64,000 nucleotides of DNA from Nitrosomonadales bacterium (GCA_005240145.1 SBAS01000115.1:4188-68187); one strand, 5' to 3'; shown: positions 1 to 37,096, counted from the first letter of the stretch. The notes: generated by a model not told the origin, from the sequence alone. Program-made: numbers and translations.

Positions 1-3000
1 GTCGACGACGAATTCGCAGCCTTCGGCAGAGGCGAGCAAATTGCCCTGGCGGTCGAAAAACTGGATCGTCGCCACGGCGATGGTGCTGATGCCCAGCGCC
101 ACGGCGATTACCGCGCGGCAGCCGCCCTTCGGAAAGACCGAGACGAACTGGCGGTAGCGCGCGAAGGCGCTGGGCAGCGACGGTGCGCCGCGCTGCGCCG
201 CGCTCCACAGGATCATCATCTGGAAGGCGCTGTCCAGCGCGAGCGGATCGGCGATCCAGGTGCCGCGCAGCGGGTGCGTCATCCACTTGATGGGGGCGGA
301 AGCCGCCTTGAGGATCGCGGCGATGCCGCGCTCGGCGAGGCCTTCGACGCGCTCGATGCCGTGCAGTGCCGCGCCATGGAACAGCACGCCGATCGAGTAG
401 GCGTCGGCGAAGCCGCCGCCTGGAATGTCGACCAGCACCGGTTCGGGCGCGGCGGGCAGGTTTTCGGTGGTGAGAAGCACGTCGGCCTGCGCGTGGAGCA
501 CCTCGCGGCCGAGCCCTTTATCCGAGCCCGTCTGGCTCGTCATGCGCACCGGCACGACATGCAGCTTGTCGCGCGGCGTGGCGGCGCCGGTGCGCAGGCT
601 CACCATGATGGTCTGCCCCGCATCGAGCACGATGCCCTTCAGTACCTTGAAATTGTCCAGGCCATGGAAGGCCATGCCCGGATTGCCGTGCAGCGCGGCC
701 TGCGCCAGCCACTCGACCATCAGCGCGGCGGGCAGCACGGCGCGGCCGTTGAAGACGTGGGATTCGAGGAAGGGCAGCGCTGCGACGCTCACCTCGCGCA
801 CGAAGGCGATGTGGTCGGCGGCGAGAATTTGCACGGGCAGCGGTGCACCGACAGGCGTGGGTCCGAGTGCGAGCACTTCAACGGCATTGCCAGGGACGGC
901 ACCGAGCTCCCGCACGAGAAAATCGGCGCCCGCCGCCGGCTCGATCAGGCCGATGCCTTCCTGCGCGAAGAGCTTGCGCACGCCCTGGGTCGCCATGCCG
1001 CCGTTCCACGGGCCCCAGTTGATCGAGACCACGCGGCAGTCCGGCCGGCGGCGCGATTCGACCTGGGCGAGCTTGTTGAGGACCTCGTTGGCCGCGGCGT
1101 AGTCGACCTGGCCGGTGCGCCCGACGCGGCCGGTGTAGGAGGAAAACAGCGCGATGGCCTTCAACTCATCCTGCGCCAGCGCGGCGAGCAGGCTGCGCAG
1201 CCCCGCCACCTTGGTGCCGTAGACGAGGTCGAACTGTTCCGCGGTCTTGTCTTCGATGCGCCGGTCGGCGAGCACGCCCGCGCCGTGCACCAGGCCGCGG
1301 ATGGCGCCGTGGCGATGGCGCACTTCTGCCATCGTGCGCGCCACCGCCGCGCCATCGCGCACATCGAGCGCGTGATAGAAGGCTCGCGCGCCGGCGGCTT
1401 CGAGCCGGCCGAGCTGCGCGCGTATTTCGCGCCCGGCGATGACTTCGCGGTACTTCGCCTCCACCGCCTTGGGCGAACCGCCGCCGGGCCTTGCGGCAAG
1501 CGCCTTCTTGATGCCGGCTTCGGTCTGCAGGTCCTGCAGCCAGGCCGGTTCGCTTGCGCCGGGCTCGCTGCGGCCGAGCAGGATCAGGGTCGGGCGGAAA
1601 GCGCGCGCGAGCGCGAGCGCCGCCTCGCCGGTGACGCCGCGCGCGCCGCCTGAGACGACGACCACGTCGCCTGGCGCGAACGCGGGTTGGGGGGCGTTGC
1701 GCTCGATCACCGCGACGGCGAGTTCGAGGGCTACGCGCCGCTGCGCCGAGAGGCCGACTTCGAGCGGACCGGCGCGGAACATTTCCGCCACGATTTGTTC
1801 AGCGGCCGCACCCGCGATGAGCGAGGCCGGATCTAGGTCGATTGCCTTGCAATGGACTTGCGGCCATTCATGGCGCGCGGTCTTGAGCAGGCCGGCGAGG
1901 CCGCCGCTGACCGGGTCGCTCTTCGCGCCCGGTGCGCCGAAGCCGAACGCGCCGTCGAGCTTCGAGACCGTGACAAGGACCGCGCCTCCAGCGCTGGCCG
2001 ATTGGCGCAGCGCGGGGCCGCAGCGCTGCAGGAGGCCGAAGGCGTGCCGGATGAAGGCGTCGTCGCTCCCGGCGGCAGGCGCGACGATGACCAACGCAGC
2101 AAGGGATGCGGGGACCTCAGCGGAAAATCCCTGGCGCGGGTCGGCGCGGTGCACCTTGAAGCGCAGCGCACGCAGGCGCTCTTCGATGCGCTCGCAAAGC
2201 TCCGAGCCGTCGTCGCTCAGCCAGACGAGGGCGCCGGCGGGCAGGTTGATTGGTTCCCTGTCATCGATGCGAGGTAGTTCAATCGGGCGGATGATCTGGC
2301 GCAGTACATCACTTGGTGCTTCTGCATGAGCAATCTCGGCAATAACAGCCGGCGCTGCAGGCACCGCGATTGACGTTGCCGGTACGGAGCGCTCGCCGAG
2401 GAGGAAATCGGCGACCTGCTGCAGGGTACGCAGCGTACCGAGGTGCTCGGGCTTGATTTCGGGCGAACCGGGCAGCTTGCCGCGCAGCGCCGCCATGATT
2501 TCGACGCGCTTGATGGAGTCGATGCCCAGGTCCGAGTCCATGCCCATGTCGAGATTGAGCATTTCGACCGGGTAGCCGGTTTTCTCCGCGACCACGGCGA
2601 GCAGGGCTTCGCTGATTGCGGAAGACTGATTTTGTACTTTCGTTTCTTCCGTAACAAAAGTTCTTCCAGCTGCAAGAAACGCGACAACCTGTTCCAGCGT
2701 TTGCAATGTCCCAAGATGCTCGGGCTTGATTTCGGGCGAGCCCGGCAGCCTGCCGCGCAGCGCCGCCATGATTTCGACGCGCTTGATGGAGTCGATGCCC
2801 AGGTCCGAGTCCATGCCCATGCTCAAGTCAAGCATCTCGACCGGATAGCCGGTTTTCTCTGCAACCACGGCGAGCGCGGCGTCGCTGATATCGGATCTCA
2901 GAGCATGGGTTCCCGCTTGCGCGGGAACGACGATTTGAGCGACGGGCGCAATAACGGCAACAGGTGCAACCGCGGCGACAGGCACGATCAACGGCGCTGC

Positions 3001-6000
3001 AGGCATCTGCGTCATCGGCACGCCGCTACGCATCTCGAGCAGCGCCTGGATGCTGCGCCGGGCCGATTCCTGGCCTTCGAGGAATTGCTTGTGCAGCTGT
3101 GCGGTCTGTTCCTGCAGGCGCTGCAGAGCGAGGATGCCGTCCTGCGCCGCATTCAGGGCGGCGGGGGCGGTTGGTGCTTTTGCCATCGTTCTGTTTTCCA
3201 CCGGAACGGGAGCAACAGGCGGGCGTGGCGTCGATGGTGCACGGTAGTTCGCCCCCGAGAGCGGGACGCTCAGCGCGGGCTTGCCGGCGCTGGCTGCCAC
3301 CGCCGGCGGCGCGTTTTCCCATTTCTCCAGCGCGACTGCGTGTCCAAGAGACGCGAGGCGGGCGAGCGCCAGCGCGAGATCAAAGATGCCGGAGCGCTTG
3401 CCGCCCGAGGCATCGAGCGCGATGGTTTCCACCTCGCGGCCGGAGAGGATGGATTGCACCAGGTCGCAGAGCACGTGTCCGGGGCCGACTTCGATGAAGG
3501 TGCGCACGCCGTCGGCGTGCATCGCCTGGACCTGCGCCATGAAATTCACCGGCCGCTCGATCTGGCTGGCGAGAATTTCGCGTGCTTGCTTCGCGGCCTG
3601 GGGATACTCGACGCCGGTCGCGTTGGCGTAGACGGGCATGCTGCCTTTGTCGAAGGCGATCTTTTCGAGCGCCCTGGCGAACGGTGCGCGCGCATCGGCC
3701 ACCAGCGGGCTGTGGAACGCCGCCGACACCTGGAGCATGCGGCTGCGTACGGCGCGCTCGGTGAGCCTGGCCAGCGCCCGCTTGATCTGTTCCACCGGCC
3801 CGGAAAGGACGTACTGCGTCGGCGAATTGCGGTTGGCCACCACGAGTTCGCCCGGCTCATCGCGCAGGAAATCCTGCACCGCTTTTTCGTCCGCCTGCAC
3901 GGCGAGCATCGCGCCGCGCTCGCCCGAACCGTTGCCCTCGGCCATGAGGCGGCCGCGCAGGTTGGACAGCTGGTGCAGCGCCGAGGGCTCGATGCGCCCG
4001 GCGCCGCACAGCGCGAGCAGCTCGCCGTAGCTGTGGCCGCAGGCGGCCTGCGCCGCGACGCCGAAATGATTCAGCACGCTGAACGCGCCCATGCTCACCG
4101 CGCCCAGCGCCGGCTGCGCGATGTCCGTGGACTTGAGCGCCTGTTCCTGCTGCTGGCGCGCCTCGTCAGCGAAGACCGGGTGCGGATAGATGAAATCGCT
4201 CAGCCGTTGGGTACCGGAGTGTTCCTGCGAGAAGGCCGCGCGCTCGCGCGCGAAAATCGCGTCGGCCTCGGCGAGCGCCTGCAGCATGCCGGGGAACTGG
4301 CAGGCAAGATCGCGCAGCATCCCGGTGTATTGAGAACCCTGGCCGGGGAAGAGCGCGCCGAGCTTGCCGCGCTGCTTGCCGGAACCGAAGGCGATGCCCG
4401 AGGGCGCAGTCCATGAGGTTTTGCCGGGATTCTTCTCCAGCATCCTGAGCGCGGAATCCATGAGGCCCGCGCGGTCGGATTCCTGCGTCACAACGATGAG
4501 CAGGCGGAATTCGGCGTCGCGGCGGAACTGCGCGCGCGATTCGCGCGCGGCGCGCCTGAAGTCGAGCCAGGCGGCGTCGGCGCGCTGCGCGACGAGCGTC
4601 GCCTTGAGTGCGTCGAGCCGGTCGTGGGAAAGCGCGAGGATTTCGACATCGCCCTCCCAGGCCGCGTCCAGCTTGCCCGCGCCGTGCTCTTCCAGCACGC
4701 AATGGAAGTTGGTGCCGCCAAAACCGAGCGCGCTCACGCCGGCGCGGCGCGGATGCCCCGGCGCGGGCAGCCAGGGGCGCTTGCCGGTGTTGACATAGAA
4801 CGGCGAGCGGCCGGGCGCGGCCTCCTCGATGGGCTGCTTGACCTTGATGGTGGGCGGCAGGACCTTTTCGTGCAGCGCCATCGCCGCCTTGATCATCCCC
4901 GCCACGCCCGCAGCGGCCTTGGTGTGGCCGATCTGGGATTTCACCGAGCCGAGCGCGCACCAGCTGCCGCTCGGGCGCGCGGCGCGGAACACGTCGATGA
5001 GCGAGGAGAGTTCGGTCGCGTCGCCGACCTTGGTGCCGGTGCCATGGGCTTCGATGAGGCCGATGGTCTCGGGCGGCGTTCCGGCGTCCGCGTAGGCGCG
5101 CTCGAGCGCGAGCTTCTGGCCGCCGGCGCGCGGCGCGTAGATGCCGCTGGAGCGCCCGTCGCTGGAAGAACCGATGCCCTTCAGCACCGCGTAAATGCGG
5201 TCGCCGTCGCGCTCGGCGTCGGCCAGGCGCTTGAGCACCAGCAGGCCGAGGCCTTCGCCCAGCACCGTGCCGTCGCAATCGCGATCGAACGGCTTCGCAT
5301 CGCCCGTGGGCGAGAGCGCCGGCGTCTTGCTGAAGCACATGTACATGAAAATGTCGTTGAACGTGTCGACGCCGCCGGTGATGACCATGTCCGAGCGGCC
5401 CGCGGCGAGCTCGAGGCTGGCGAGGTGGATCGCGGCGAGCGAACTCGCGCAAGCCGCGTCGACGACGCAATTGGTGCCGCCCAGGTCGAAGCGGTTGGCG
5501 ATGCGGCCCGCGGCAACGTTGCCCAGCAGCCCCGGAAAGGAATTCTCCTGCCAGCCGACGTAGGAGTCCGCGATGCGCTGGACGACGTCCTCGGCCACGC
5601 CGGCGTCCACGCCGGCGTCCTTCAGTGCGCGGCGCCAGATCGGATGGCCGAGGCGCGCGCCGAGCGGAATCACGAGTTCCAGCGCGCCGGTGACCCCGAG
5701 GATGACGGCCGTGCGATCGCGGTCGAACTTGCGGCCCGCGGGTTTCCCGCCCACGTTGCCGATGGCGTAGCCGGCGTCGGCGAGCGCGCGCTGCGCGGCA
5801 ACGAGGCTGAGCAGCTGCGAAGTGTCGGTCGCCTCGATGTCTTTCGGCGCGATGCCGAACTCCATCAGGTTGAAATTCACCGGCGCGAGGAAGCCGCCGC
5901 TTTGCGCGTAAGTGCGGTCGGGGGATTTCGGATCGGCGTCGAAGTACTCCGCCGCGCTCCAGTGCGTGGCAGCGGGAACGGGCGTAATCGCATCGACGCC

Positions 6001-6096
6001 GTTCTTGATGTTCGCCCAGTACGCCTGCAGGCCGTCCGCCTTGGGAAACAGGCAGCTGATGCCGACAATGGCGATGGGACTCGTTTTATTGCTCAT
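1..6096 (-). CDS. pfaA: PfaA-like iterative type I PKS / PUFA-synthase subunit (KS-AT-ACP-ACP-KR-DH), 3' end truncated by the window edge
   Basis: Manual translation from ATG 6096 (MSNKTSPIAIVGISCLFP) stays open to position 1 (2032 codons, no stop, so absent from the ORF track). Motifs: KS DAACASS, EAHGTGT, KSQIGHTKAAAG; AT GHSYGE and AFHS; two ACPs DLGIDSIKRVEI; KR GGARGVT and YAAAN; DH HVFNGRAVLP and DSAFQ. Confidence 0.92.
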   Translation of the reverse strand, partial: MSNKTSPIAIVGISCLFPKADGLQAYWANIKNGVDAITPVPAATHWSAAEYFDADPKSPDRTYAQSGGFLAPVNFNLMEFGIAPKDIEATDTSQLLSLVAAQRALADAGYAIGNVGGKPAGRKFDRDRTAVILGVTGALELVIPLGARLGHPIWRRALKDAGVDAGVAEDVVQRIADSYVGWQENSFPGLLGNVAAGRIANRFDLGGTNCVVDAACASSLAAIHLASLELAAGRSDMVITGGVDTFNDIFMYMCFSKTPALSPTGDAKPFDRDCDGTVLGEGLGLLVLKRLADAERDGDRIYAVLKGIGSSSDGRSSGIYAPRAGGQKLALERAYADAGTPPETIGLIEAHGTGTKVGDATELSSLIDVFRAARPSGSWCALGSVKSQIGHTKAAAGVAGMIKAAMALHEKVLPPTIKVKQPIEEAAPGRSPFYVNTGKRPWLPAPGHPRRAGVSALGFGGTNFHCVLEEHGAGKLDAAWEGDVEILALSHDRLDALKATLVAQRADAAWLDFRRAARESRAQFRRDAEFRLLIVVTQESDRAGLMDSALRMLEKNPGKTSWTAPSGIAFGSGKQRGKLGALFPGQGSQYTGMLRDLACQFPGMLQALAEADAIFARERAAFSQEHSGTQRLSDFIYPHPVFADEARQQQEQALKSTDIAQPALGAVSMGAFSVLNHFGVAAQAACGHSYGELLALCGAGRIEPSALHQLSNLRGRLMAEGNGSGERGAMLAVQADEKAVQDFLRDEPGELVVANRNSPTQYVLSGPVEQIKRALARLTERAVRSRMLQVSAAFHSPLVADARAPFARALEKIAFDKGSMPVYANATGVEYPQAAKQAREILASQIERPVNFMAQVQAMHADGVRTFIEVGPGHVLCDLVQSILSGREVETIALDASGGKRSGIFDLALALARLASLGHAVALEKWENAPPAVAASAGKPALSVPLSGANYRAPSTPRPPVAPVPVENRTMAKAPTAPAALNAAQDGILALQRLQEQTAQLHKQFLEGQESARRSIQALLEMRSGVPMTQMPAAPLIVPVAAVAPVAVIAPVAQIVVPAQAGTHALRSDISDAALAVVAEKTGYPVEMLDLSMGMDSDLGIDSIKRVEIMAALRGRLPGSPEIKPEHLGTLQTLEQVVAFLAAGRTFVTEETKVQNQSSAISEALLAVVAEKTGYPVEMLNLDMGMDSDLGIDSIKRVEIMAALRGKLPGSPEIKPEHLGTLRTLQQVADFLLGERSVPATSIAVPAAPAVIAEIAHAEAPSDVLRQIIRPIELPRIDDREPINLPAGALVWLSDDGSELCERIEERLRALRFKVHRADPRQGFSAEVPASLAALVIVAPAAGSDDAFIRHAFGLLQRCGPALRQSASAGGAVLVTVSKLDGAFGFGAPGAKSDPVSGGLAGLLKTARHEWPQVHCKAIDLDPASLIAGAAAEQIVAEMFRAGPLEVGLSAQRRVALELAVAVIERNAPQPAFAPGDVVVVSGGARGVTGEAALALARAFRPTLILLGRSEPGASEPAWLQDLQTEAGIKKALAARPGGGSPKAVEAKYREVIAGREIRAQLGRLEAAGARAFYHALDVRDGAAVARTMAEVRHRHGAIRGLVHGAGVLADRRIEDKTAEQFDLVYGTKVAGLRSLLAALAQDELKAIALFSSYTGRVGRTGQVDYAAANEVLNKLAQVESRRRPDCRVVSINWGPWNGGMATQGVRKLFAQEGIGLIEPAAGADFLVRELGAVPGNAVEVLALGPTPVGAPLPVQILAADHIAFVREVSVAALPFLESHVFNGRAVLPAALMVEWLAQAALHGNPGMAFHGLDNFKVLKGIVLDAGQTIMVSLRTGAATPRDKLHVVPVRMTSQTGSDKGLGREVLHAQADVLLTTENLPAAPEPVLVDIPGGGFADAYSIGVLFHGAALHGIERVEGLAERGIAAILKAASAPIKWMTHPLRGTWIADPLALDSAFQMMILWSAAQRGAPSLPSAFARYRQFVSVFPKGGCRAVIAVALGISTIAVATIQFFDRQGNLLASAEGCEFVVD
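2401..2886 (-). repeat. Tandem ACP-domain repeat (2 copies, 273-nt period)
   Basis: The two ACP cores match at 55 of 59 residues; 2751-2821 and 2478-2548 are identical over 71 nt. Confidence 0.95.
2905..2931 (-). repeat. REP-like palindrome (GTCGTTCCCGCGCAAGCGGGAACCCAT) read in frame in the PKS linker
   Basis: Perfect 8-bp stem GTTCCCGC/GCGGGAAC (2909-2928) with a 4-nt loop; translates as VVPAQAGTH, resembling widespread TTCCCGC-N4-GCGGGAA extragenic palindromes. Confidence 0.6.
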
Positions 6097-6106
6097 GGCT
6101 TGCTCG

Positions 6107-7471
6107 TCATGCTGTCAAAAACTGGCGCAGCTGCGTCGCTGCGCCCTGCATCAGGTTCTCGGCGACCACCACCACGCGCCGGTTTTCCGGCTTTTCGAGG
6201 AAGCTGCCGCGCGCCCATTCGTTGAAAGCCCCCATCGCCGGACCGCACCAGACCTGGTAATCCATCTGGCGCGATGATTCGCCGGCATTCGCCCAGCGCG
6301 AACTCAAGCCGAGGTAACTGCGGAAAACCAGCGCCATCCGGTGCTTTGGATCGCGCTCGGCGCGCTCGACCTGCGCCGCGTCGCGCTCGAGGAAAAACCG
6401 CCTCGTGTCGCGCCAGGCCTCGTCGACCGTGGCACGCAGAAGTTGCTTTTCAATGAAAGCCTTATCCGCTTCCGGGAGCGTTTCCAGGCCCGCGTTTACC
6501 CGGTACAGATCATACAGCTTGGCAGCACGCATTGGGAACATCGTGCCCCGCTTGAGCACCTGCACCCGCACCCCCATTTCGAACATGTCCGCCGCCGGCG
6601 CCATGGCCACATCGGCCTGTTCCGCCTGCGCCAGCATCTGGCGCACCAGATCAGAGCTTCCCGACTCGACGCAGGCCTGGTTGACGGTGCCCGTGAGCAC
6701 ATAGGCGGCGCCCATCGCGAACGCCGCTGCCAGCCCCGCCGGGGTCGCCAATCCACCCGCCGCGCCCACGCGCAATGGCTGGTCATACCCATTTTGGGCC
6801 TGCATCCGGTCACGCAAGGCGAGAAGCGTCGGGAGCAAGGTCACGAGCGGGCGATTGTCGGTGTGACCGCCGGAATCGGCTTCCGCCGTCACGTCCTGCG
6901 CCATCGGGATGGTCGCCGCGAGCGCTGCCTGCTCGGAAGTGATTTCCTTCGCGCCTACCAGTTCGTCGAGGAACTCCCGCGGCGGGGGCGAGAAGAACTG
7001 CGTCGCGACTTCGACGCGCGAGACCTTGGCGACGATGCGGTTGGGCGCGACGACGCGGCCTTCGGCATCGCGCTTGATGCCGCTCACCCGGTAGCGCACG
7101 ACCGGCAATGTCAGCCGCAGGTAGGCCGAAGCTTCGACCAGGCGGATGCCGCGGCGCAGGTACAGATCCACCACCTGCGCTTCGAGCTCCGGCTCATTGG
7201 GACTGTGAATCAGGTTGAAGCCGTAGGCCGCGCCCGCAACCGTGCCCGCCAGCTCGTCGATCGCGGCCTCGATGCGCGGAAGGTCCAGGCCCGCGGCGCC
7301 GAAAAAACTCAGCATGCCGGCGCGCGCCATCTCCGCCACCAGGCGGGTCGAGGCGATGCCGTTGGCCATCGCGCCTGCGACATAGGCGTAGCGCACGCCA
7401 TGGTCGCGGCGGAATGCAGCGTCGCCCAGATTCTCCGGCTTGAGCGAAGGAATGCCGGCGGCCGCGTTCAT
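6107..7471 (-). CDS. pfaD: PfaD-family FMN-dependent enoyl reductase (about 454 aa)
   Basis: Motifs AGAMANGIAS, FGAAGL, EADSGGHTDNRP, APAADMFEMGV, YQVWCGPAMGAFN. Start placed at ATG 7471, which overlaps the upstream stop (ATGA); the longer track ORF (to 7765) extends into the neighbouring gene. Confidence 0.9.
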   Translation of the reverse strand: MNAAAGIPSLKPENLGDAAFRRDHGVRYAYVAGAMANGIASTRLVAEMARAGMLSFFGAAGLDLPRIEAAIDELAGTVAGAAYGFNLIHSPNEPELEAQVVDLYLRRGIRLVEASAYLRLTLPVVRYRVSGIKRDAEGRVVAPNRIVAKVSRVEVATQFFSPPPREFLDELVGAKEITSEQAALAATIPMAQDVTAEADSGGHTDNRPLVTLLPTLLALRDRMQAQNGYDQPLRVGAAGGLATPAGLAAAFAMGAAYVLTGTVNQACVESGSSDLVRQMLAQAEQADVAMAPAADMFEMGVRVQVLKRGTMFPMRAAKLYDLYRVNAGLETLPEADKAFIEKQLLRATVDEAWRDTRRFFLERDAAQVERAERDPKHRMALVFRSYLGLSSRWANAGESSRQMDYQVWCGPAMGAFNEWARGSFLEKPENRRVVVVAENLMQGAATQLRQFLTA

Positions 7472-8679
7472 GCGGCGGCCTGAGCGGCCCCTGCAGCGAT
7501 GAGTTGTTCGATCACGCTCTCGGCGAGCCCGGCTTCGCGCAGCACCTCGCGCGTGTGCTCGCCCAGGCGCGGCGCGTGGCGCCGGTATCCGGGCGAGGAT
7601 TCGGACCACTCGGATGGCACCGCCATGCTGCGGATGCGGCCTTCGCTCGGGTGCTCGACTTCGCGGAAGTAGCCGATCGCGGCGAGGTGCGGATCCTCGA
7701 CGATGTCCTGCAGGCTGTTCATGCGCTGCACCGGAATGTCGGCAGCCTCCAGCGCCGCGATCCACTCGGCGGTGCTGCGCGTGCGCATGGCTTCGGCAAC
7801 GAGGCGGTTGGAATCATCGAAATTCTGGCTGCGCGCGGTGGGCGTGGCATAGCGCGGATCGGACAGCAGTTCGGGCTTGCCGATGAGCGCAAAGAACGCG
7901 CGCCATTGCTTGTCGTTGTAGACCAGCACGCAGACGTAGCCATCTTTTGTCGCGTAGGGCAGGCGCTCCGCCGCCAGCATGCGAGCGTAGCCGATGGGCC
8001 CGGGTTTTTCATCCGCTCCTGCCACGTAGGTGTAGCCGCCCATATGCTCGCCCATCACGGTCTGCAGCAGGCTTTCGAACATCGGCACGTCGATGCGCTG
8101 GCCGCGGCCGCTTTTCTCGCGCCTGTACAGGGCCGCACACACCGCGTTGACGATATGCAGGCCGACGGTGCGATCGGCCATCGTCGCCGGCACATAGCGC
8201 GGCGCTTCCGCGCCGGATTCCTTCAGGAGCCATGGCATGCCGGCCGCGCCCTGGATCAGGTCGTCGTACGCGGCCTTGGCGGCGTAGGGCCCGCGCTGCG
8301 AATAGCCGAAGGCGCCGACGTAGATGATGCGCGGATTCACCGCGCGCACCTCGTCATAGCCCAGCTTCAGGCGCGCCATCGCCTGCGGCCGGATGTTGTA
8401 GACCAGCACGTCGGCAAGTTTGGCGATGGCGAGGCAGGCTACGCGGCCCGCGTCCTTTTTCAGGTCGAGCACCACCGAGCGCTTGTTGCGGTTGGCGTTC
8501 ATGAAAATGTGGCCCATGCCCCTGGAGCGCAGCGGCGCGTTGTGCCGCATCACGTCGCCCTCGGGCGACTCGAGCTTGATGACGTCGGCGCCGTAGTCGC
8601 CGAGGATCTGGGTCGCGAACGGACCCATCACCACGGAGGTGAGGTCGAGGATGCGTACGCCGTCGAGCGGTCCGCTCAT
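7468..8679 (-). CDS. CaiB/BaiF family III CoA-transferase
   Basis: N-terminus GPLDGVRILDLTSVVMGPFATQILGDYGADVIKLE, NRNKRS, AAYD motif, C-terminal APRLGEHTREVL. Confidence 0.92.
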   Translation of the reverse strand: MSGPLDGVRILDLTSVVMGPFATQILGDYGADVIKLESPEGDVMRHNAPLRSRGMGHIFMNANRNKRSVVLDLKKDAGRVACLAIAKLADVLVYNIRPQAMARLKLGYDEVRAVNPRIIYVGAFGYSQRGPYAAKAAYDDLIQGAAGMPWLLKESGAEAPRYVPATMADRTVGLHIVNAVCAALYRREKSGRGQRIDVPMFESLLQTVMGEHMGGYTYVAGADEKPGPIGYARMLAAERLPYATKDGYVCVLVYNDKQWRAFFALIGKPELLSDPRYATPTARSQNFDDSNRLVAEAMRTRSTAEWIAALEAADIPVQRMNSLQDIVEDPHLAAIGYFREVEHPSEGRIRSMAVPSEWSESSPGYRRHAPRLGEHTREVLREAGLAESVIEQLIAAGAAQAAA

Positions 8680-8683
8680 AAAT

Positions 8684-8763
8684 CAGGGACAGTCCACGTT
8701 TTCCTGCTCTCGGTCGCTGGCAGGTCGGTCATGGGGCTCTCGGGAAAACGTGGACTGTCCCTG
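8684..8763. repeat. REP-like inverted-repeat doublet, copy 1
   Basis: Perfect 21-bp arms CAGGGACAGTCCACGTTTTCC (8684-8704) and GGAAAACGTGGACTGTCCCTG (8743-8763), 38-nt spacer, intergenic. Confidence 0.85.
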
Positions 8764-8766
8764 TTT

Positions 8767-9717
8767 TCATTCGGGTTGTATGCCGGCGAGTTTGACGAGC
8801 CTGGCCCAGTGCGCGATTTCGCTCAGGATGAATTTGCCGAGCTGTTCCGGGTTCATCGGCGCGACGTCGGTGCCGATGACCGCGAACTTGTCGAGGATTT
8901 CTTTTTTCCTTACCGCTTTCTGCGTGTTTTCAGAGAGCAAATTCACGATCTCCCTCGGCGTGCCGGCCGGCGCCACGAGCGCGAACCAGGCGATGAGCTC
9001 ATAGCCTTTCAACTCCTCGGCGATCGCCGGAACGTCCGGCGCAAGCGGCGTACGCGTGGCCGAAGTCACGGCCAACCCTTTCAGCTTGCCGCCCTTTTGC
9101 TGCGCCAGCGCGTTGCCCAGGTCGACGAACGTGAACGACAGCGTGCCGCCGAGGACATCGGTGACGGTCTGCGGGATTCCCTGGTAGGGGACTTCCAGCA
9201 CGTCCAGCTTGCCCATGGAATTGAGCATCGCGAGCGAAACCCGCGAGCCGGCGGAACCATGGCCCGAGGAGAGCTTGCCGGGCTTGGCGCGCGCGTCGGC
9301 GAGGAACTCCTTGAAGTTCCTGATCGGCGAGTCGGACTTCAGCATCAGCATGAACGAGGTGGTGCCGATGCGCGCCACCGGCGCGAAATCCTTCACCGGG
9401 TCGTAGGACAGTTTCTTGAACAGGCTCACGTTCGCCGCCTGCGGCGTGTTGGTGGTGACGAGCAGCGTGTAGCCGTCGGGCGCGGCCTTGGCTACGTCGG
9501 AGGCCCCGATCGCGCCCGAGGCGCCGGGCTTGTTCTCGACGACGAACGGCTGCTTGAGTTCTTCCTGCAGCTGCTGGCCGACGAGGCGCGCCACCTGGTC
9601 GGTCGCGCTGCCCGCCGGGAAAGGCACGACGAGCTTGACGGGCTTTGCAGGATAGCTTTGAGCAAGATTGCCACTCGAGAAGAGAACTCCTGCCATGACT
9701 GCGATCCACTTCTTCAT
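8767..9717 (-). CDS. Bug/TctC tripartite tricarboxylate transporter substrate-binding protein
   Basis: Signal peptide MKKWIAVMAGVLF followed by YPAKPVKLVVPFPAGSATD, VVENKPGASG, PDGYTLL; start ATG 9717 has a purine-rich RBS. Confidence 0.92.
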   Translation of the reverse strand: MKKWIAVMAGVLFSSGNLAQSYPAKPVKLVVPFPAGSATDQVARLVGQQLQEELKQPFVVENKPGASGAIGASDVAKAAPDGYTLLVTTNTPQAANVSLFKKLSYDPVKDFAPVARIGTTSFMLMLKSDSPIRNFKEFLADARAKPGKLSSGHGSAGSRVSLAMLNSMGKLDVLEVPYQGIPQTVTDVLGGTLSFTFVDLGNALAQQKGGKLKGLAVTSATRTPLAPDVPAIAEELKGYELIAWFALVAPAGTPREIVNLLSENTQKAVRKKEILDKFAVIGTDVAPMNPEQLGKFILSEIAHWARLVKLAGIQPE

Positions 9718-9728
9718 CGTTTTTCCCC

Positions 9729-11456
<1,728 letters not shown>

Positions 11457-11457
11457 C

Positions 11458-11730
11458 TTACTCCCCCTCCTCGAACTTGCTCGCGATCAGGTTCAGCAGC
11501 GCTGCGAGCGCCGCGTCGGCGTCCTCGCCGTCGGCATCGATGGTGATCGAGGCGCCCTTGCCCGCGGCGAGCATCATCACGCCCATGATGCTCTTGGCGT
11601 TGACCCTGCGGCCGTTGCGTGTCAGCCAGAGTTCGCACTTGTAGCTGCTCGCCACCTGGGTGAGCTTGGCCGAGGCCCTCGCGTGCAGGCCAAGCTTGTT
11701 GATGATCTGCGTTTCAGCGCGCGCCATCAC
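11458..11730 (-). CDS. ptsH: HPr/NPr phosphocarrier protein
   Basis: GLHARAS phospho-His motif and NAKSIMGVMML regulatory-Ser motif; 90 aa. Confidence 0.95.
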   Translation of the reverse strand: MMARAETQIINKLGLHARASAKLTQVASSYKCELWLTRNGRRVNAKSIMGVMMLAAGKGASITIDADGEDADAALAALLNLIASKFEEGE

Positions 11731-12164
11731 GGCCCCCGTGATCTGTCACCACGCCCTGCGTGGTCCTTCCCACAGGAATCCATGGTCATGTGTACCACGC
11801 CCTCGGTGCCGCCCGACAGCGCTTTCTCCACCACCACGAGCAGGCCCTGGTCGCGGTAGGTAAGCGCGCGGATCAGCATCGGCAGGTTGACGCCCGATAT
11901 CCCCTCCACGCGTCCTGCCACCAGCAGCTTGAGGGCGATGTTGCCCGGCGTCGCGCCATAGATGTCGGTGAGCACCAGCACGCCGTCGCCTTCGTCCAGC
12001 TGGCGTACCAGGTCCTTCGCCTGCGGCAGGATCGCCTCCGGATCGTCGTGCACCGTGACGCCGACCTGGCGCACGCGCAAGGGGCGCTTGCCGAGCACGT
12101 GGTTGGCCGAATGGATCAGCGCCTCGCCGAAGGCGCCGTGCGCGACGATCAGGATTCCAATCAT
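11727..12164 (-). CDS. PTS mannose/fructose-type EIIA component
   Basis: MIGILIVAHG, LTDIYGATP, GVNLPMLIRA; start ATG 12164 overlaps the gshB stop. Confidence 0.92.
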   Translation of the reverse strand: MIGILIVAHGAFGEALIHSANHVLGKRPLRVRQVGVTVHDDPEAILPQAKDLVRQLDEGDGVLVLTDIYGATPGNIALKLLVAGRVEGISGVNLPMLIRALTYRDQGLLVVVEKALSGGTEGVVHMTMDSCGKDHAGRGDRSRGP

Positions 12165-13111
12165 GGGGTTCTGGATTTGATTTCCTGTTCCAGCGCATTC
12201 AAAAACATTCCCGCAACATCGAATCCAGTCTGGTCCTGGATTTCGCGGAAGCAGGTCGGGCTGGTGACGTTCACCTCGGTGAGGTGCTCCCCGATCACGT
12301 CCAGCCCCACGAGGAGCAGCCCGCGCGCGGCGAGCACCGGCCCGAGCGTCTCGGCAATTTTGCGGTCGTGCGCCGAGAGCAGCTGTGCGATGCCGCGCCC
12401 GCCCGCGGCGAGGTTGGCGCGCGTCTCTCCCGGCCTGGCGATGCGCGCGAGCGCATGCGGCACCGGCTTGCCGCCGATCAGCAGCACGCGCTTGTCGCCC
12501 TTCGCGATGTCCGGAATGTAGCGCTGCGCCATGATCGAGCGCGCGCCGCCCTGTACCATGGTTTCGACGATGACGTAGCGGTTCGGGTCGCCCACGCGCA
12601 CGCGGAAGATGCTTTCCCCGCCCATGCCGTCGAGGCGCTTGAGGATCACGTCCTGGTGCTCGTCGATGAAGGCGTGCACGCGCTCCGGGTCGCTCGTGGC
12701 GAGCGTCGGCGCGACGAACTGGGCGAATTCGAGGATGCCGAGCTTCTCGTTGTGGTCGCGCACTGCGGCGGGCCGGTTGAACACGCACGCGCCCTCGCGC
12801 TCGGCCTGCTCCAGCAGCCAGGTCGCGGTGAGGTACTCGAGGTCGAAAGGCGGATCCTTGCGGTTGAGCACGGCGTCGAACGACGCGAGCGCAGCCTCCC
12901 GCGGTTCCTTTGCCCGGTACCAGTCGCCGTCGTTGCCGGTCAGTTCCAGCGCGCCGGCGAGCGCGAATACCCCGCCCTTTGAATAGAGGTCGCCCTGGCG
13001 GCAGGAAAAAACCTGGTGGCCACGCGCTTGCGCGGCGCGCATCATCGCGACGCTCGTGTCCTTGTAGCCCTTGATCTGCTCGAGCGGGTCGAGGACGAAG
13101 AGGAACTTCAT
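12161..13111 (-). CDS. gshB: Glutathione synthetase
   Basis: MKFLFVLDPL, KDTSVAMM, RKDPPFD, RDHNEK, GMGGESIF, RANLAAGG, EVNVTSPT; start ATG 13111. Confidence 0.96.
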   Translation of the reverse strand: MKFLFVLDPLEQIKGYKDTSVAMMRAAQARGHQVFSCRQGDLYSKGGVFALAGALELTGNDGDWYRAKEPREAALASFDAVLNRKDPPFDLEYLTATWLLEQAEREGACVFNRPAAVRDHNEKLGILEFAQFVAPTLATSDPERVHAFIDEHQDVILKRLDGMGGESIFRVRVGDPNRYVIVETMVQGGARSIMAQRYIPDIAKGDKRVLLIGGKPVPHALARIARPGETRANLAAGGRGIAQLLSAHDRKIAETLGPVLAARGLLLVGLDVIGEHLTEVNVTSPTCFREIQDQTGFDVAGMFLNALEQEIKSRTP

Positions 13112-13705: not shown

Positions 13706-13782
13706 GCGCCCGTAGCTCAGCGGATTAGAGTATTGGCCTCCGAAGCCAAGGGTCGTGGGTTCGAATCCCGCCGGGCGCGCCA
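13706..13782 (+). tRNA. tRNA-Arg (anticodon CCG)
   Basis: Acceptor stem GCGCCCG/CGGGCGC, anticodon arm TTGGC-CTCCGAA-GCCAA, T-loop GTTCGAATC, encoded CCA end. Confidence 0.97.
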
Positions 13783-37035: not shown

Positions 37036-37096
37036 AAATCAGGGACAGTCCACGATTTCCTTAGTTCGTGTGGAAATCGTGGACTGTCCCTGATTT
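37036..37096. repeat. REP-like inverted-repeat doublet, copy 2
   Basis: Perfect 25-bp arms AAATCAGGGACAGTCCACGATTTCC (37036-37060) and GGAAATCGTGGACTGTCCCTGATTT (37072-37096), 11-nt spacer; same family as 8684-8763. Confidence 0.88.

Follow-up and report, generated by a model that had tools for sequence, protein, structure and literature searches.

A pfa/ole island joined to a resident CoA-transferase gene in a Nitrosomonadales genome

The Type I pfa-like clusters of Shulse & Allen encode the enoyl reductase (ER) PfaD, a multidomain PfaA with ketosynthase, acyltransferase, acyl carrier protein, ketoreductase and, in some cases, dehydratase domains [KS-AT-ACP-KR(-DH)] and a fused PfaBC, in which a second ketosynthase is joined to a chain-length factor, an acyltransferase and two dehydratases [KS-CLF-AT-DH2]. 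Such clusters occur together with ole genes, and the hentriacontanonaene producer Geobacter bemidjiensis is among their hosts (PMC3098273). The Pfa synthase is the source of the acyl groups used by OleA in Shewanella (PMC6463001). Here, we examined a 64,000-nt stretch of DNA from a Nitrosomonadales bacterium (GCA_005240145.1, SBAS01000115.1:4188-68187; hereafter the window, to which positions refer unless a contig or locus is named), in which the start codon of pfaD overlaps the stop codon of caiB, a gene for a family III (CaiB/BaiF-type) CoA-transferase. The genome, designated G000, has ∼65% G+C, a size of 3.2 Mb and a completeness of 96%. We propose, with a probability of roughly 0.85, that a horizontally acquired pfa/ole island of ∼24 kb landed in a variable spot behind caiB, that a later deletion fused pfaD to caiB, and that CaiB and the adjoining Bug-type solute receptor have no specific role in the pathway.

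Gene content of the island and comparison with described clusters

Every gene of interest in the window (ptsI, bug, caiB, pfaD and pfaA) lies on the minus strand. The pfaD gene (6107..7471) encodes a 454-aa ER that scores 648.7 bits against TIGR02814 (cut-off 449.25; profile positions 2-442 of 444), which places it within the PfaD family. The start of pfaA, at 6096, is 10 nt past the pfaD stop, and the window holds the 5′ 2032 of its 2048 codons (1..6096), with the rest running to contig C90:4140, left of the window. The PfaA protein matches TIGR02813 with 1475.9 bits, and its Pfam domains (KS, AT, two PP-binding, KR and PS-DH) correspond to KS-AT-ACPx2-KR-DH. A fused pfaBC gene (KS-CLF-AT-DH2) follows pfaA and runs off C90, its C-terminus being encoded on contig C6. 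The island of G000 is split over contigs in the order C90, C6 and C120; in a related species, G008, the orthologous region has the same gene order on one contig. The Pfam domains of the G008 PfaBC orthologue are two KS, one AT and two FabA, and the fused pfaBC together with pfaD and pfaA gives the gene set of a Type I-like cluster.

The genes oleA (thiolase), oleB (alpha/beta hydrolase), oleC (AMP ligase-like) and oleD (short-chain dehydrogenase/reductase) are contiguous and in this order at C6:3750-8316. OleA matched PRK09258 with 477 bits (cut-off 285) and OleC matched PRK09274 with 753 bits (cut-off 478), followed by olefin beta-lactone synthetase models. The top matches of OleC to NCBIfam equivalog models were full-length and below the cut-offs (677.6 and 673.2 bits versus 900 and 850), and those of OleD, to 2-alkyl-3-oxoalkanoate reductase models, were likewise below the equivalog cut-off (436.8 and 403.1 versus 580 bits). 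Downstream of oleD, pfaE encodes an ACPS-family phosphopantetheinyl transferase (PPTase). It is followed on C6 by a 278-aa open reading frame (ORF), another Bug gene, oppositely oriented, and a gene for a 330-aa protein that resembles dihydroxyphthalate decarboxylases by sequence and for which the family search named no family. Then come a SAM-II riboswitch (RF00521, 43.1 bits; locus L128, G000:C6 11858-11935, plus strand) and metX, and metW continues on C120. The ∼24-kb island therefore consists of pfaD-pfaA-pfaBC-oleABCD-pfaE plus cargo, between caiB and the metX riboswitch. Part of this cargo, an IS91-family transposase fragment and a VapB/VapC pair, lies between pfaBC and oleA (L128, G000:C6 2283-3743). 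The same slot holds VapBC in G031 and an unrelated 384-aa ORF without a Pfam match in G008, and is empty in G018.

On the basis of architecture and PfaD similarity, we assign the island to the Type I-like pfa + ole clusters, a known kind. Its domain content is that of the described Type I clusters, oleABCD and a PPTase gene are linked to it in the same manner, and the pfaD-first order is also found at its closest relatives outside the genus. The differences are a betaproteobacterial host, a PfaD that lacks the N-terminal subdomain and, in G000, the C-terminal tail, and the joining of the island to a resident CoA-transferase gene. The enzyme set and the presumed logic, from Pfa to OleA and on to OleBCD, are also those of the pfaABCDE and oleABCD genes of Shewanella and Photobacterium, which yield a 31:9 hydrocarbon (PMC6463001). 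However, pfaD is last in those clusters and first here, pfaB and pfaC are fused here, and the slot between pfaC and oleA is occupied by the IS91 fragment and VapBC. No hot-dog pfaT was found here, though no search aimed explicitly at pfaT was made. Judging from the Type I pfa/ole clusters of Geobacter and Gemmata, the island would most likely make a polyunsaturated acyl chain that OleABCD condense head-to-head to a long polyolefin such as C31:9.

The insertion site and the caiB–pfaD junction

To examine the origin of the arrangement, we drew on 34 congeneric species and 27 further genera of the order, all represented by fragmented metagenome-assembled genomes (MAGs). True PfaD orthologues (81-89% identity) occur in eight of the 34 species (G000, G008, G003, G030, G031, G018, G032 and G011), and none was found in the 27 other genera sampled. 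In contrast, the genes around the island form a resident backbone, gshB-EIIA-ptsH-ptsI-(bug)-caiB followed by the SAM-II riboswitch, metX and metW. In eight species, at least nine contigs without pfa genes carry its part from ptsI to metW, with or without bug, in one piece. Orthologues of caiB (70-91% identity) adjoin ptsI in pfa-less species, either with a Bug gene (G022, G014, G009, G020 and G012, and a decayed Bug in G001) or without one, at a gap of 9-30 nt (G004, G002, G010 and a second contig of G013). The Bug gene is also missing from two pfa-positive species, G030 and G031, where the order is ptsI-caiB-pfaD. In four pfa-less species (G022, G014, G020 and G001), metX-metW comes directly after the caiB stop on the same contig, and in G022 the ∼110-nt gap between caiB and metX is filled by the SAM-II riboswitch (RF00521, 38.6 bits; L040 12861-12938, minus strand). 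The riboswitch of pfa-less species starts a few bases past the caiB stop and marks the right-hand border of the insertion site.

Since caiB is followed directly by the riboswitch and metX in pfa-less species, the insertion point of the island lies between the stop of caiB and the riboswitch of metX. This defines, to within a few bases, the insertion site of a predicted polyolefin island in a betaproteobacterial genus. A tree of PtsI groups the five testable pfa-positive species (support 87/89), and a tree of CaiB groups three of these five (100/99) with two unresolved, which is compatible with a single acquisition. The earlier note on this DNA had offered, as one of two options, that a polyketide synthase (PKS) was grafted onto an existing Bug-CaiB unit with clipping of PfaD. 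Our data support and refine this option, as the backbone exists on pfa-less contigs and the island is confined to a subclade. The note considered pfaD and pfaA, which we find to be the head of a larger pfa/ole island extending over other contigs.

Outside the genus, 80 PfaD loci were available, 64 of them with at least 1.5 kb of upstream sequence (in total 545 kb upstream and 596 kb downstream). The nearest relatives (58-79% identity) are from Planctomycetota, Desulfobacterales, Geomonas and two betaproteobacterial MAGs. All loci that extend far enough have pfaD followed by pfaA, and then pfaC where the flank reaches. A CaiB homologue was near none of the 80 loci, even at E ≤ 1e-3, and the only Bug was a single distant one, 9 kb away. 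A conserved Bug-CaiB-Pfa module is not apparent from these comparisons, as co-occurrence does not extend beyond one lineage and the presence of caiB and bug is independent of pfa.

A DNA alignment of the eight pfa-positive species revealed two forms of the junction. In five species (G000, G008, G003, G030 and G031), caiB and pfaD share an identical ATGA joint; in the window it lies at 7468..7471 on the minus strand in the context GC-ATGA-AC, where the caiB TGA overlaps the pfaD ATG as the earlier note had described. In the other three (G018, G032 and G011), pfaD has its own ATG, eight or nine extra codons (MVETLERHSAGSRVPALKPE) and a conserved leader of ∼55 nt, which may be a regulatory site of the island or a promoter remnant. 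The leader (GCGGGGCTTTATCAATCGCGCGGACCGCGTTATCGTTG...) is located at ∼3235-3290 of L035 (G018), ∼17000-17055 of L033 (G032) and ∼295-350 of L038 (G011). Each of the three species has an unrelated cargo upstream of it: G032 a toxin-antitoxin-like pair encoded on the opposite strand, G011 an ORF of ∼150 aa, which also lies directly behind caiB on the caiB contig of G018, and G018 an AAA-ATPase (DUF4143) with an ankyrin protein. In the G018 assembly, caiB is on contig C93 and pfaD on contig C36. Homology between the fused and unfused forms resumes immediately past the ATGA, so the simplest history is one deletion of cargo, leader and first pfaD codons, from which both the caiB stop and the pfaD start arose, and the overlap is most simply read as a secondary deletion joint. 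Two pfa-less species, G009 (L041 4781-5551, minus strand) and G004 (L046 10896-11660, minus strand), have a gene for a conserved ∼240-aa secreted protein ATGA-coupled to the caiB stop. The presence of a different gene coupled at the same place indicates that the site behind caiB is a general insertion hotspot, at which foreign genes have repeatedly come to overlap caiB.

We therefore favour the following course of events. The island would have entered without the ∼75-aa N-terminal subdomain of PfaD, or would have been trimmed of it early. In one lineage, which includes G000, a deletion would then have removed the remaining spacer, the ∼55-nt leader and the first ∼8 codons of pfaD, and the same deletion would have created the ATGA overlap of caiB stop and pfaD start. 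As a result, pfaD, and probably also pfaA-pfaBC, would most likely be transcribed by read-through from the pts/bug/caiB unit. No clear Shine-Dalgarno sequence precedes the pfaD ATG in the fused or unfused form, and we infer that pfaD would be translated by termination-reinitiation. The locus would be a clear case of 'operon capture': the incoming cluster gives up its leader and comes to rely on a gene of the host.

Alternatively, a promoter in the 3′ part of caiB might drive pfaD-pfaA-pfaBC, in which case the overlap would be incidental and pfaD would not be coupled to caiB. The missing Shine-Dalgarno sequence in both forms is compatible with this, as pfaD initiation may be unusual anyway, and in G000 the translation of caiB could be lowered by a repetitive extragenic palindromic (REP) hairpin immediately upstream of its ATG. 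However, a consensus promoter and terminator scan of 5900-12500 gave counts not above those in shuffled sequences (1 versus 0.5 and 5 versus 4.4) and no promoter-like site in caiB, which is weak evidence at 65% GC, and reinitiation classically occurs at overlaps of 4 nt that lack a Shine-Dalgarno sequence. On balance, we regard separate expression of the island from within caiB as unlikely, with perhaps a minor share of the probability.

Several observations weigh against the proposed insertion and subsequent deletion. The eight species show all four combinations of a fused or unfused junction with the presence or absence of a deletion at the 3′ end of pfaD, so recombination inside the island or repeated events would be needed. 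Co-transcription and translational coupling are predicted from the overlap, the direction of change at the junction (deletion from a spaced form, not insertion into a fused one) is chosen by parsimony, and the product of the island is deduced from homology. The MAGs are fragmented throughout, and in G000 the island is spread over three contigs. Finally, five diverged species retain the ATGA joint, and the linkage could be selectively useful.

A PfaD without the N-terminal subdomain

According to a 2026 structural paper (PMC13311796), the ERs of polyunsaturated fatty acid (PUFA) synthases are characterized by an N-terminal subdomain of ∼80 residues, which is absent from the ERs of fatty acid synthases and PKSs and has no assigned function. 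Shewanella PfaD has an N-terminal subdomain of ∼78 aa and a tail of ∼24 aa, and the PfaD of the window lacks both, confirming the minimal protein, without the ∼70-80-aa extension and the C-terminal tail, that had been claimed for this locus. The protein, which starts with MNAAAGIPSLKPENLGDAAFRRDHGV, aligns gap-free over 445 residues to positions 79-523 of the 547-aa Shewanella oneidensis PfaD (PDB 4YX6) and to 116-559 of 587 in 6LKC. Relative to 4YX6, the protein is shorter by about 74 residues at the N-terminus and about 19 at the C-terminus. As its sequence begins at 4YX6 residue 79, it differs from the PUFA-synthase-type PfaD structures (4YX6, 6LKC and 9SDD) in having no N-terminal subdomain. 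In contrast, the FMN-binding and catalytic core is intact, with the GAMANGI motif, the GGHTDN histidine block and the lid (PF21607 lid insert, 105 bits).

The trans-acting PKS ERs DfnA and MlnA (PDB 4CW5 and 4Z38) have the same TIM-barrel and lid fold, a length of ∼454-470 aa and no N-terminal subdomain. The window PfaD aligns to them over residues 14-452, with 422.5 and 363 bits compared with about 550 for PfaD structures. DfnA and MlnA serve trans-AT modular PKSs, whereas family score and cluster context identify the window protein as a PfaD.

Outside the genus, 61 of the 80 PfaD loci have an upstream frame without a stop for 75 codons or more, so the subdomain is apparently kept there. The upstream translations of these 61 loci share the pattern GWW.PDG...P..vv..dG..AVa.GG...lG. 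We built a hidden Markov model (HMM) of the subdomain from these 61 relatives, and in a control it detected 10 of 12 held-out cases at E ≤ 1.1e-3. Against 40,940 six-frame ORFs of G000 it gave no match (best 15.2 bits, E = 0.048). A subdomain encoded as a separate ORF elsewhere in G000 was therefore rejected, given that the held-out control had worked. The ∼55-nt leader of the unfused form was also considered as a relic of the subdomain, since GALSIARTALSL looks like GILAVARGGNLEF by eye, but this is unsupported, the HMM scoring ∼0 bits on the in-frame upstream translations. Likewise, a longer PfaD starting from a GTG at 7765 was rejected: it would overlap caiB by ∼300 nt, its additional text is Arg-rich and out of frame, it has no HMM match, and the ATG is common to five species. 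At least four planctomycete PfaD proteins (L054, L056, L061 and L109) also lack the subdomain, with an in-frame stop 8-27 codons upstream. These loci are from Gemmataceae/Planctomycetia MAGs and are subdomain-less independently of this genus; in L056, L061 and L109 the shortened PfaD belongs to a pfaD-pfaA-pfaC cluster that is complete within the available flank.

The C-terminal tail (∼23-30 aa) is kept in the relatives outside the genus and in G008, G018 and G031. A deletion of ∼70-80 bp, common to G000, G003, G011 and G032, removes it, and a further 1-nt difference makes the G000 PfaD the shortest of the genus. An assembly artefact was rejected as the cause, since four species share the deletion. 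Pairwise dN/dS of PfaD among six species is 0.08-0.17 at dS 0.44-0.86, and on this ground pfaD was also rejected as a pseudogene. Purifying selection on the shortened PfaD suggests that this genus can dispense with the PUFA-specific N-terminal subdomain. A PfaD without this subdomain is the modestly interesting variant of the system, and a natural set of such proteins, from eight species and under purifying selection, makes the dispensability of the subdomain directly testable.

The shortened PfaD could also be a sign of decay, such that loss of subdomain and tail inactivated the enzyme, the island is a silent remnant and the overlap is meaningless. In favour of decay are the description of the subdomain as characteristic of PUFA-synthase ERs (PMC13311796), the position of the G000 PfaD as the shortest of the genus, and the IS91 fragment and VapBC pair inside the island. 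However, the dN/dS values hold over dS of up to 0.86, the GGHTDN block and GAMANGI motif are intact, and pfaA (∼2048 codons) and pfaC (∼2046 codons) are uninterrupted in every species where they are complete. Moreover, the subdomain is also missing from solved ERs of the same fold, DfnA (454 aa) and MlnA (470 aa), and from the four or more planctomycete clusters. A decaying island is, in our assessment, improbable.

The CoA-transferase, the Bug receptor and neighbouring features

The caiB gene (7468..8679, minus strand) belongs to the resident backbone, and its product matches PF02515 over the full length (371 bits, 1-366 of 366). It scores below the cut-off of every NCBIfam equivalog model, including those for formyl-CoA (237 versus 442 bits), succinate-glutarate (229 versus 750), CaiB L-carnitine (138 versus 413) and mesaconate (191 versus 700) transferases. 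The Bug/TctC periplasmic solute receptor gene (8767..9717, minus strand; 316 aa; PF03401, 200.6 bits) is an optional member of the backbone, and its ATG lies 11 nt (GGGGAAAAACG) past the ptsI TAA, the distance that had been reported. G000 encodes 60 Bug/TctC and 13 family III CoA-transferase paralogues. Five of the 13 transferase genes have a Bug gene within 1.2 kb, which indicates that the Bug-transferase pair is a common resident module. Similarly, in Burkholderiales an extracytoplasmic receptor adjoins a CaiB/BaiF-type transferase. The pair in the window differs in that no tctA/tctB membrane genes are adjacent and no substrate is assigned. We propose that CaiB and Bug form a generic pair for organic-acid uptake and CoA activation, which would handle some small organic acid unrelated to the island and would have no specific role in pfa/ole metabolism.

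The second option of the earlier note was that Bug and CaiB supply a starter or handle the product in a new Pfa architecture, a reading that was to fall if relatives carried ptsI-Bug-caiB without pfa genes and if pfa homologues never co-occurred with CaiB. A synteny comparison for CaiB and Bug beside pfaD-pfaA found both, with ptsI-Bug-caiB in pfa-less relatives and CaiB near none of the 80 outside loci, which leaves this option unsupported. Recruitment of CaiB, with or without Bug, to the pathway, either to activate a Bug-imported acid as an unusual starter or to transfer CoA without ATP to a released Pfa acyl chain for OleA, would agree with the ATGA overlap in five species, with the use of acyl-CoA by OleA in vitro and the economy of an ATP-free acyl-CoA route (discussed in PMC6463001), and with a transferase that is tied to no named substrate, but it is highly improbable given that the same caiB (70-82% identity) adjoins ptsI in at least eight pfa-less species and none of the outside pfaD loci, that G030 and G031 are pfa-positive without Bug, that unrelated cargo separates caiB and pfaD in G011, G032 and G018, that CaiB dN/dS is similar with and without pfa, and that in vivo work indicates that OleA substrates come directly from Pfa ACPs (PMC6463001). 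Equally doubtful is a co-option after the fusion, through which the transferase would make, without ATP, the CoA thioester of a Pfa-released polyunsaturated acid or a Bug-imported starter for OleA and polyolefin synthesis would come under control of the pts operon.

With the overlap most simply traced to island insertion and later deletion, it is very unlikely that the transferase and Bug represent a new component of the lipid pathway. More generally, adjacency of a biosynthetic gene and a CoA-transferase gene, even with overlapping stop and start codons, can arise purely from the insertion of an island and a subsequent deletion. With dozens of Bug and CaiB paralogues in the genome, the risk of such misleading adjacency is higher.

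Bug and the transferase gene are not tightly joined in G000, being separated by an 87-nt spacer (8680..8766), which the earlier note had not mentioned; the distance is 8-28 nt in other species. The spacer contains a REP-like palindrome (8684..8763, no strand assigned) with perfect arms of 21 bp and a 38-nt loop. Its predicted fold has −41.4 kcal/mol (z = −8.3), and the 3′ arm ends 5 nt before the caiB ATG. The palindrome is specific to G000 at this position and is absent there in other species. With ≤4 mismatches allowed, both strands together contain about 80 matches to the 21-nt arm, spread over 38 contigs; most of these are paired, corresponding to roughly 40 palindromes. The family has the arm consensus CAGGGACAGTCCACGTTTTCC and usually short loops, and a second copy in the window is at 37040-37092.

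Upstream of Bug, the backbone continues on the minus strand with ptsI (9729..11456), which encodes enzyme I of the phosphotransferase system (PTS; TIGR01417, 538.9 bits), ptsH (11458..11730; HPr, a 90-aa ORF) and a gene for an EIIA(Man)-type PTS protein (11727..12164; 145 aa); the last two were assigned by reading the sequence. The gshB gene ends at 12161. The junctions are tight: at its two ends the EIIA gene shares 4 nt with gshB, including the gshB stop, and 4 nt with ptsH, and a single nucleotide separates ptsH from ptsI. Given this chain of tight junctions (11456-12164), the fused pfa genes may be attached to an extended pts transcription unit. Further upstream, a tRNA gene (13706..13779, plus strand; Rfam RF00005, 67.6 bits) lies between a cytochrome c-like ORF and an acyl-CoA dehydrogenase-like ORF.

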